Below, one piece after another: positions 865-2,590 of a DNA stretch of 64,000 bases. The notes beneath the pieces were generated by a model. The model had not been told where the DNA came from. It searched no databases and saw only the letters and a program-made list of their open reading frames with translations. Origin of the DNA: Minisyncoccota bacterium (GTDB lineage: Bacteria; Patescibacteriota; Minisyncoccia; UBA6257; GWB1-50-10); NCBI GenBank assembly GCA_041917695.1, contig JAYRXE010000037.1, positions 130,155 through 194,154 of the forward strand. The letters run 5' to 3'. Position 1 is the first letter of the stretch; each line of letters opens with the position of its first letter. Made by a program: the position numbers and the translations under genes.

Positions 865-2373
865 AGAGGATTTGATCCTGGTCCAGGATGAACGCTGGCG
901 GCGTGGATAAGGCATGCAAGTCGAACGGACTTTTCTTTGAACGAAATGCGATTACATCAAGTTGAGAACGATGAAAAGTTAGTGGCGAACGAGTTAGTAA
1001 CACCTTGGTACGTACCTCAGAGTCGGGCATAACGAGCCGAAAGGTTCGCTAATTCCCGATGGTCCCGAAAGGGTAAAGCAGCAATGCGCTCTGAGATCGG
1101 CCTAGGCCCGATCAGCTAGTTGGTGAGGTAATGGCTCACCAAGGCTACGACCGGTAGGGGGGGTGAGAGCCCGGTCCCCAACGACGCAACTGAGACACGG
1201 TGCGTACTCCTACGGGAGGCAGCAGTCGAGAATATTCCACAATGGGCGAAAGCCTGATGGAGCGACGCCGCGTGGAGGATGAAGCATTTCGGTGTGTAAA
1301 CTCCTTTTCTACGGGAGAAAGCGCGATGAGCGTGTGATAGTACCGTAGGAATAAGTGGCTGCAAACTTCGTGCCAGCAGCCGCGGTAATACGAAGGCCAC
1401 AAGCGTTATCCGGATTTATTGGGCGTAAAGGGCGCGTAGGGGGCTTATCAAGTCCGCGGTAAAATTTCGGGGCTCAACTCCGAACCTGCCGGGGAAACTG
1501 GAAAGCTAGAGGGCGTTAGAGGCAGATGGAACGCACGGTGTAGGGGTGAAATCCGTTGATATCGTGCGGAACACCAAAGGCGAAGGCATTCTGCTGGGAC
1601 GTTCCTGACCCTGAGGCGCGAAAGCGTGGGGAGCAAAAAGGATTAGATACCCTTGTAGTCCACGCCCTAAACGATGCAGACTAGCTGTCTCGAGTATCGA
1701 CCCTCGGGGTGGCGTAGCTAACGCGTTAAGTCTGCCGCCTGGGAAGTACGGCCGCAAGGCTAAAACTCAAAGGAATAGACGGGGACTCGCACAAGCGGTG
1801 GAGCATGTGGTTTAATTCGACGGTAAACGAGACACCTCACCTGGGCTTGACATGCACGTGAAAGCTTTCCGAAAGGAAAGCCCTCTTCGGACTCGTGCAC
1901 AGGTGCTGCATGGTTGCCGTCAGCTCGTGCCGTGAGGCGTTCCCTTAAGTGGGGTAACGAGCGCAACCCCTGTTCTCTGTTATACGTTGTCAGAGAAGAC
2001 TGCCGTCTTATAGACGGAGGAAGGCGGGGATGACGTCAAATCAGCATGGCCCTTTGACGCCCAGGGCTACACACATGCTACAATGGCCGGCACAATGGGT
2101 TGCCAAGTCGAAAGACGGAGCTAATCCCATCAAAACCGGCCCCAGTTCAGATTGAGGGCTGCAACTCGCCCTCATGAAGTCGGAATCGCTAGTACTCGCG
2201 GATCAGCATGCCGCGGTGAATACGTTCTCGAGTCCTGTACTCACTGCCCGTCACGTCAGGGGAGCTGGGAGCAGGTGAAGTTCCGCATTCGCGGGATCAG
2301 CCTGAGCTCGGTGACATGGACGAAGTCGTAACAAGGCACGGGTAGCGGAAGCTGCTCGTGGATCAATTAACTT
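865..2373 (+). rRNA. rrs: 16S ribosomal RNA (complete, about 1.5 kb); no 23S/5S follows it
   Basis: The 5' end AGAGGATTTGATCCTGGTCCAGGATGAACGCTGGCGGCGTG and internal GTGCCAGCAGCCGCGGTAATAC, GGATTAGATACCC and GTCGTAACAAGG motifs are canonical. The 3' end GGATCA is followed by ATTAACTT rather than CCTCCTT. Confidence 0.9.
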
Positions 2374-2590
2374 AGTCGATAATGTTCAGGCAAATTCGCC
2401 GAACGGCGGATGAGCTCAATGCTTTTTCATTGGATATACTATCCAATGAAGGAGCGTGGAGCTTTGGCAACCGACCTTGCATTCATTATTTTTTCTCTTT
2501 GATATGGGTGATCGTCCCATATAAAACAATTCGATTTTTCGCATTGGGATAACGGGAAAGGTTTCTGTTTTTTTATTTCCACGCTATACT

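Follow-up and report, generated by a model that had tools for sequence, protein, structure and literature searches.

How are start codons found when the ribosome offers a Shine-Dalgarno (SD) sequence nothing to pair with? Pairing between the SD sequence of the mRNA and its anti-SD counterpart in 16S rRNA is the textbook way of finding start codons in bacteria, and it is rare for the rRNA partner to be lost outright. The question is raised by a 64,000-nt stretch of the genome of a Minisyncoccota bacterium (part of contig JAYRXE010000037.1; the window in what follows), in which the 16S rRNA gene runs past its conserved GGATCA without the anti-SD CCTCC. The original prediction, made by a model from the DNA letters without database searches, drew attention to this tail, to a general lack of SD motifs in front of native genes, to -10 boxes lying close to start codons, and to a few islets of genes with strong SD motifs, which it took as a marker of foreign DNA. 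On the evidence of the gene itself, the 16S rRNA of the window has truly lost its anti-SD sequence.

The 3' tail of the 16S rRNA

Rfam finds a single full-length bacterial small-subunit rRNA at positions 860-2373 (SSU_rRNA_bacteria, RF00177, model positions 1-1533, 1418.6 bits); at the gathering threshold, the whole window yields only this 16S rRNA and two tRNAs. Neither helix 45 (2337-2360, CACGGGUAGC-GGAA-GCUGCUCGUG) nor the universal GGAUCA (2360-2365) is damaged. The tail that follows is AUUAACUUA (2366-2374) in place of CCUCCUUA. A separate scan of the 16S 3' end against the Rfam model aligns the two without gaps, model GGAUcACCUCCUUu against sequence GGAUCAAUUAACUU, with AUUAACUU standing opposite the model's CCUCCUUu. 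AUUAA (2366-2370) replaces CCUCC, and AUUAAC occupies the site of the CCUCCU motif; all four anti-SD cytosines have been changed to A or U, and the length of the tail and its U's are retained. The claim of a tail without CCUCC is thus borne out, as is the accompanying statement that CCTCC does not occur in the next 200 nt: downstream of the 16S gene the + strand has no CCTCC before 4111, and a string search finds neither CCTC nor CTCC in 2366-2596, that is, up to the next gene. AAGGAG at 2449, the sole SD-like string of the trailer, is of the wrong polarity and is enclosed in a hairpin. A long 5'/3' processing stem or a downstream CCUCC that would shift the mature 3' end was considered and rejected: the flanks fold into local hairpins only, and CCUCC is absent.

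The same appearance could arise from an error of assembly, from a pseudogene copy, or if this were one of several rRNA operons and the functional copy had a normal CCUCC. Only one 64-kb window was looked at, and rRNA genes in metagenome assemblies are prone to chimerism. However, the contig is also present in three JGI metagenomes and one Logan assembly, and the 16S 3' end, together with 230 nt of unique trailer, is 100% identical across the three independent JGI assemblies. The gene scores as a complete 16S rRNA, with helix 45 intact and a consensus promoter of its own; the same type of tail recurs in at least 33 other species, complete chromosomes and a cultured strain among them; and the 71 genes that lack SD motifs above background (see below) are what would be predicted of an anti-SD-less ribosome. 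An artefact is, on these grounds, very improbable.

Comparison with the 16S tails of related lineages had been proposed as a check in the original prediction. One genome per GTDB species was scanned for GTCGTAACAAGG, 22-30 nt of any sequence, GGATCA and then a base other than C (a sample, not a census). At least 33 loci have the helix 45 of the window followed by a C-free tail, for example AUUAAACUA, AUUAAUUUA and UUUAUUUA, so that the same C-free tail is found in at least 33 species. Most of these loci are titled Patescibacteria, Paceibacterota or named Parcubacteria candidate phyla (Staskawicz-, Nealson- and Liptonbacteria); among the loci listed, the rest are titled Saccharibacteria, plain 'bacterium' or, in one case, Gastranaerophilales, and the cultured Minisyncoccus archaeiphilus is one of those with the same helix 45 and C-free tail. 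About 70 of the 120 matches listed are eukaryotic 18S 3' ends (TTTCCGTAGGTGAACCTGCGGAAGGATCATT) in assemblies labelled Streptomyces, Vibrio, Collinsella and others; they represent eukaryotic contamination of bacterial genome records (within loci L007-L126 of the GTDB genome contigs).

The consensus over the 32 distinct tails among the matches listed is W-U-U-A-W-W-Y-U-W, with G almost nil and few C's. Information per position is 0.6-1.6 bits at tail positions 1-9 and mostly about 0.2-0.4 (0.08-0.56) beyond them; its limitation to these nine positions agrees with a mature 16S rRNA that, like that of E. coli, ends about 9 nt beyond GGAUCA. The string AUUAA itself was found again in at least 12 related species. 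Many anti-SD-less relatives also share a motif, G-U-(G/A)-U-C-G-(A/G), 10-25 nt after GGAUCA (loci L013, L019, L027, L032, L034, L049, L052, L055, L060 and L125), which in the window appears as AGUCGAU at 2375-2381. The motif may serve as a signal for pre-rRNA processing; in the 5' flank of the 16S gene nothing was found that would pair with it.

Upstream regions and the proposed routes of initiation

The regions in front of start codons were analysed for 71 genes, a set built from gene calls and Pfam labels of public assemblies matching the window. GGAG, GAGG or AGGA occurs at -20..-1 of 14 genes (19.7%), as against 18.1% at random coding positions, and GGAGG upstream of 2.8%, as against 3.1% inside genes. 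The mean duplex energy with ACCUCCUUA is -1.9 kcal/mol upstream of starts and -3.3 kcal/mol in the coding background; the canonical anti-SD duplex is therefore weaker upstream of genes than within them. Thus, the window shows neither the enrichment of SD motifs 5-12 nt upstream of starts nor the CCUCC in 16S rRNA that go with canonical SD-led initiation. The view of native genes as mostly SD-less holds up, also for each of the eight housekeeping genes that had been named as examples (rpsM, rpoA, rplQ, rplM, pgk, frr, greA and dnaK), all of which give -1.9 kcal/mol or weaker with ACCUCCUUA. In the cluster of ribosomal protein genes running from infA to rpsI, the intergenic gaps are 4-26 nt long, A/U-rich and SD-less, except for GGAGGA (20525-20530) before rpmJ. 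The N-termini of DnaK, DnaJ, L36, S13, L17, SerRS and MreB match the conserved ones, as judged against those of E. coli, so the start assignments of these genes are sound. The anti-SD-less relatives resemble the window, with SD 4-mers at 12% upstream and 13% in the background (163 open reading frames (ORFs)); in a Gracilibacillus (Firmicute) locus, treated by the same naive method as a control, the figures are 67% and 9% (n=9). CPR (candidate phyla radiation) loci with UCUCC tails supplied 16 ORFs, one using an alternative code, too few for a positive control, and high-GC control loci were unusable under naive ORF calling.

The anti-SD sequence might, alternatively, have been changed and not lost, the tail AUUAAC pairing with a new motif (GUUAAU or UUAAU) upstream of starts. 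The tail is indeed non-random, in that AUUAA recurs and positions 1-9 are more strongly conserved than the trailer, and strings resembling UUAAU or AAUUAA lie upstream of a few genes, for example that for the pilin and rpsD. An all-A/U helix of 5 bp would, however, be very weak. The duplex energy of the window's own tail with -20..-1 (-0.82 kcal/mol) is no different from that of the coding background (-0.80 kcal/mol), TTAAT lies upstream of 1 gene where 3.7 are expected and GTTAA upstream of 2 where 1.9 are expected, and not one tail-complementary 5-mer is enriched, while the -10 box is. A new SD/anti-SD pair was rejected as a candidate on these duplex energies and k-mer enrichments, both negative over the 71 genes, and a retuned anti-SD is scarcely credible.

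ATACT and TATAC, both from the -10 box, are the most enriched upstream 5-mers of the window. Of the 28 promoter-proximal genes (those with at least 40 nt of upstream spacer), 12 have a -10-like hexamer whose end lies 5-13 nt ahead of the start codon. The shuffle control gives an expectation of 1.85 +/- 1.27, a count of 12 being reached in none of the 2000 shuffles, and intervals of the same width at different offsets contain such a hexamer in only 1-4 genes. The relatives show the same preference: the -10 distance peaks 6 nt from starts, with 14 matches as against about 2 per position. This short distance between -10 box and operon-first start is the mark of a leaderless type of architecture, and the leaderless or short-leader geometry that had been suggested is supported beyond chance; the three boxes originally cited for it, in front of the response regulator gene, pilB and ORF 25156, were verified at 6, 11 and 10 nt from their starts. 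In six genes (those for the response regulator, the GtrA-like protein, Pgk, the HhH-GPD glycosylase and two PMT_2 glycosyltransferases) the spacing is 6-8 nt, so that the usual transcription start would fall on or beside the start codon. In six others (ORFs 28482, 25156 and 41803, pilB, trigger factor and hrcA) it is 9-13 nt, which would make for leaders of a few nucleotides. The GtrA-like gene, whose upstream gap is just 7 nt, stands outside the 12 of 28; it is one of 3 among the 43 tightly spaced genes with a close -10 box.

The packing of transcription units is very compact in places: T-run terminator hairpins abut the next gene's -10 box at 3634-3680, 16603-16638 and 25112-25145, the T-run occupying the place of the -35 or UP element. 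At 47034-47060, a CIRCE-like inverted repeat (TTGGCACTT-N9-GAGTGCTGA) overlaps the TTGACA-16-TATAAT promoter (to 47068) of the operon behind it, hrcA-grpE-dnaK-(348-aa ORF)-dnaJ.

A feature that the original prediction overlooked is the packing of stop and start codons. For 61 genes there is a same-strand upstream neighbour, and 32 of these start within 7 nt of its stop codon, 11 of them overlapping it; nearly half of the 71 genes therefore abut an upstream stop codon. This is the geometry of termination-reinitiation coupling. The starts themselves are ATG in 66 of 71 genes (93%) and lie in a distinctive context. G makes up 8-15% at -1..-6 (27% genome-wide), A makes up 42-49% at -4..-7, in part because of upstream TAA stop codons, and pyrimidines predominate at -1 and -2. 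Folding over -20..+20 is weaker at starts, with a minimum free energy of -3.7 kcal/mol, than it is inside genes, where the value is -7.9 kcal/mol (P=7e-18).

What the DNA itself shows is the rRNA tail, the absence of SD motifs, the spacing of the -10 boxes, the tight packing of genes and the weak folding at starts; the mechanism that we infer from these would run as follows. The anti-SD sequence has been lost, the cytosines of CCUCC having become A or U to give AUUAA, and the mRNAs, to which the 16S rRNA offers no partner, are SD-less. Promoter-proximal genes would be transcribed into mRNAs that are leaderless or have leaders of 2-7 nt, which would suit direct recognition of AUG by 70S ribosomes. 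Operon-internal genes whose start overlaps the upstream stop codon, or lies no more than 7 nt from it, would be translated by termination-reinitiation coupling. In the remaining genes, a strong AUG whose surroundings are poor in G, rich in A and weakly folded would be selected in a structure-dependent way. An anti-SD-less 16S rRNA, SD-less mRNAs, three SD-independent routes of initiation and a tail that decayed after initiation had become SD-independent are, taken together, probably the best explanation of the locus.

Several considerations weigh against that explanation. The positions of the mature 16S 3' end and of the transcription start sites are deduced from homology and promoter geometry. 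The 64 kb of genome covered leave room for a second rRNA operon, which may have a canonical tail. Native rpmJ is preceded by a well-placed GGAGGA. In about 15 of the 28 promoter-proximal genes no close -10 box can be recognised, and leaderless initiation therefore does not extend to all genes of the window. Gene starts in the window come from an automatic caller (any bias of which would be towards SD sequences), a naive method was used to call ORFs in the relatives, and the positive control has a small sample (the n=9 already referred to). Finally, the organism's placement within the Parcubacteria is coarse, because the nearest sampled 16S rRNA is only about 80% identical.

A more far-reaching proposal, which we regard as rather doubtful, is that the lineage has abandoned mRNA-rRNA pairing altogether and makes its proteome by leaderless 70S-type initiation and stop-start reinitiation, much as a mitochondrion does, with the tail under selection and SD sequences inert. 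If that were so, a C- and G-free tail (W-U-U-A-W-W-Y-U) kept in a genome of 54% GC would have been selected as non-pairing or for another partner, and SD motifs, being functionally inert, would remain only in recently imported DNA.

Placement, precedents and the probable origin of the tail

The organism can be assigned, coarsely and from sequence, to the Patescibacteria (CPR), Parcubacteria/Paceibacteria type. Its best 16S matches among the sampled relatives are metagenome-assembled genomes of Patescibacteria type (75-80% identity), and membership is further supported by the shared helix 45, a 16S gene unlinked to 23S and a uL13 of 113 aa. A scan of metagenomes for the same helix 45 followed by CCTCC gave 35 contigs that are 75-79% identical to the 16S rRNA of the window over near-full-length alignments. 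These are as distant from the window as the C-free ones, so both tail states coexist in the broad group, in agreement with a study in which just 48% of Parcubacteria were found to have the anti-SD motif (Tsurumaki, Saito, Tomita & Kanai 2022, RNA 28:1041; PMC9297842). The anti-SD-retaining relatives that share helix 45 are only weakly enriched for SD 5-mers (12% as against 6%; 93 ORFs). Since relatives with CCUCC also use few SD sequences, the tail most likely decayed under relaxed selection once initiation was already SD-independent; limited as they are to 93 ORFs, the data suggest that initiation was SD-poor before the tail was lost.

Loss of the anti-SD in a subgroup of Parcubacteria had thus already been published, a fact that went unmentioned in the original prediction, and the paper in question is the only relevant one that a search for literature on SD usage or leaderless initiation in Parcubacteria/Patescibacteria brought up. 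According to it, the anti-SD-less Parcubacteria overlap the subgroup that lacks uL1, and SD helices are presumably not formed in them (PMC9297842). The window fits this description in its CPR-type 16S rRNA with a shortened h44 and no 3' CCUCCU, in its short uL13 and long uS13 and uS11, and in an rplJ-rplL pair that is not preceded by rplA. In front of rplJ-rplL (51183-53350) lie dnaJ and a G+C-rich, apparently structured spacer of 178 nt, not rplK-rplA; this arrangement is suggestive as regards loss of uL1 but no proof of its absence. Tsurumaki et al. report only that missing motif and do not describe the features that follow. Added here are the consensus of the replacement tail, the SD usage, the absence of a new pairing motif, the proximity of -10 boxes to start codons and the stop-start coupling; the -10 geometry, the coupling and the rest of this added description follow logically from loss of the anti-SD and will come as no great surprise to the specialist.

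Other systems that manage without SD pairing differ from the window in instructive ways. In Bacteroidota, initiation is reportedly SD-independent, with a sequestered anti-SD sequence and a Kozak-like, A-rich upstream context. The genes of the window are likewise SD-less, with upstream regions that are A-rich, G-poor and weakly structured. In contrast, Bacteroidota keep a CCUCC that is hidden in the ribosome, retained but unused, and the 16S rRNA of the window is without the sequence itself; the window differs further in its pyrimidines at -1 and -2 and in the many -10 boxes that lie close to starts. Leaderless-rich bacteria (Actinobacteria, Deinococcus; 'group C' of GeneMarkS-2) have a -10 box about 6-8 nt upstream of operon-first starts, and in this the window is like them. 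Unlike the window, whose internal genes are SD-less (rpmJ excepted), Actinobacteria and Deinococcus retain the anti-SD sequence and SD sequences on internal genes. Mammalian mitochondria resemble the window in a small-subunit rRNA (12S) that has no anti-SD sequence (PMC10582724), in 5' leaders that are absent or minimal (judged here from promoter geometry) and in start-codon-dependent initiation. They are, however, organelles with a handful of mRNAs and dedicated factors; the window has bacterial operons and heavy stop-start coupling.

A clade that lacks the anti-SD sequence and includes a cultured member offers a natural system for operon translation without SD pairing, and it bears on how loss of the anti-SD relates to the reduced CPR ribosome, including loss of uL1. 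There is also a practical side. Gene finders that score ribosome-binding sites (RBSs) will mis-call starts and small ORFs in such genomes, and Parcubacteria should be annotated with leaderless or no-RBS models. A public + strand call at 354-794 (146 aa, no Pfam match) overlies rpmE, the gene for ribosomal protein L31, on the minus strand (367-618); it is probably spurious and illustrates how a genome without SD sequences can be mis-annotated. An SD motif also seems to be the reason why weak low-GC ORFs of the window were called.

Low-GC islets and other features of the window

Table 1. Positions of features in the window
Feature	Positions	Strand	Basis or remarks
Sigma-70-type promoter of 16S, TTGACA-16 nt-TACACT	695..722	+	Promoter scan, 10/12 matches; sequence verified
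16S rRNA gene	860..2374	+	Rfam RF00177; no 23S gene after 16S; next gene is the response regulator at 2597
Helix 45 (CACGGGUAGC GGAA GCUGCUCGUG) and conserved GGAUCA, intact	2337..2365	+	Rfam 3'-end alignment; sequence verified
3' tail AUUAACUUA, AUUAA in the anti-SD CCUCC positions	2366..2374	+	Ungapped alignment to model ACCUCCUUu
Strong hairpin in 16S 3' trailer	2411..2465	+	Fold of flanks; stem pairs the sole SD-like AAGGAG of the trailer
TATACT, 6 nt before GTG 2597 (response regulator), leaderless geometry	2585..2590	+	Sequence verified
TATACT, 11 nt before ATG 3692 (pilB), right after terminator hairpin 3634-3669	3675..3680	+	Sequence verified
TATAAT, 8 nt before ATG 10518 (PMT_2 glycosyltransferase)	10527..10532	-	Sequence verified
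TATAAT, 6 nt before ATG 13333 (GtrA-like)	13321..13326	+	Sequence verified
TATACT, 7 nt before ATG 16646 (pgk)	16633..16638	+	Sequence verified
infA-rpmJ-rpsM-rpsK-rpsD-rpoA-rplQ-rplM-rpsI cluster	20290..24084	+	Gene calls, Pfam, conserved N-termini
AAGGAGG, 5 nt before GTG 24346	24334..24340	+	ORF of 122 aa, GC 0.44, no Pfam or PHROG match
TATAAT, 10 nt before ATG 25156	25140..25145	+	Sequence verified
TACAAT, 7 nt before GTG 25460 (HhH-GPD glycosylase)	25447..25452	+	Sequence verified
TATACT, 9 nt before ATG 28482	28492..28497	-	Sequence verified
TACAAT, 12 nt before ATG 41803	41785..41790	+	Sequence verified
TATAAT, 8 nt before ATG 45081 (PMT_2)	45090..45095	-	Sequence verified
TTGACA-16 nt-TATAAT promoter, 13 nt before hrcA ATG 47082	47041..47068	+	Sequence verified
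TATACT, 12 nt before ATG 54414 (trigger factor)	54427..54432	-	Sequence verified
Two small low-GC ORFs (54514-54762, 54749-54994) with strong SDs AAGGAG and GGAGGA	54502..54994	+	Adjoin tRNA-Gln
57-aa ORF (GTG 60512) behind AAGGAGG	60339..60524	-	GC 0.42

Strong SD sites precede GTG 24346, ATG 24571, ATG 54514, ATG 54749, GTG 60512 (minus strand) and, with its GGAGGA, native rpmJ. The islet SD motifs of the original prediction are thereby confirmed at 24346, 54514 and 60512 and fall away at 32208 and 46014, where there is AAAGGA only (-5.3 and -5.6 kcal/mol). Its proposal that such motifs mark foreign DNA, as relics of recent transfer from SD-using donors, fares less clearly. An SD sequence of -8 kcal/mol or stronger is found only where the GC content of the ORF is below 0.50 (6 of 12, as against 0 of 62; Fisher P=5e-6). 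The islet ORFs have a GC content at third codon positions of 0.25-0.46, as against 0.55-0.79 for native genes, and belong to no Pfam or PHROG family; the lowest-GC stretch, at 54.4-57.3 kb, contains tRNA-Gln and an att-like 18-nt repeat. Yet the cases are few: only about four of the six strong SD sites are independent (24346 and 24571 share one ORF, and rpmJ is native), ORFs 24346 and 60512 were selected for their SD motif, and gene callers favour weak ORFs with an RBS. The combination of an SD 6-mer, a start codon and an ORF of at least 30 aa arises by chance at dozens of intragenic places, and the largest, lowest-GC islet genes have no SD sequence (55552) or the weak AAAGGA (32208, 46014). 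Searches of the islet ORFs against Pfam and PHROGs and by phage tblastn gave no matches, phage homologues included, and no donor came to light. The idea is plausible but unproven, with the balance lying slightly against it.

The repeat just referred to is an exact 18-nt direct repeat of the 3' end of tRNA-Gln (55322-55339 and 55487-55504), 165 nt downstream of the tRNA and in the lowest-GC part of the window (54400-57300, GC 0.42-0.45). It has the look of an att-type scar left by a past integrative element; no integrase was recognised in that low-GC stretch.

Three other features of the window and its left flank deserve mention. The tRNA at 16357-16433 (+) scores 55 bits with Rfam, and ARAGORN assigns it an anticodon loop of 8 nt (UCCGCGUA) with a four-base 'cgcg' anticodon; possibly this is a tRNA of Arg type whose loop is expanded. 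Just left of the start of the window (L001:2054-2779) is the gene for a release factor of 241 aa with RF1-type PET and GGQ motifs, which begins at the equivalent of residue ~105 of E. coli RF1 and so has no N-terminal domain 1. Finally, an unannotated Lys/Arg-rich ORF of 50 aa (MAPKKRKTTKKAVKK...) at 24939-25091 (+) has an SD-less upstream region in the style of the native genes.

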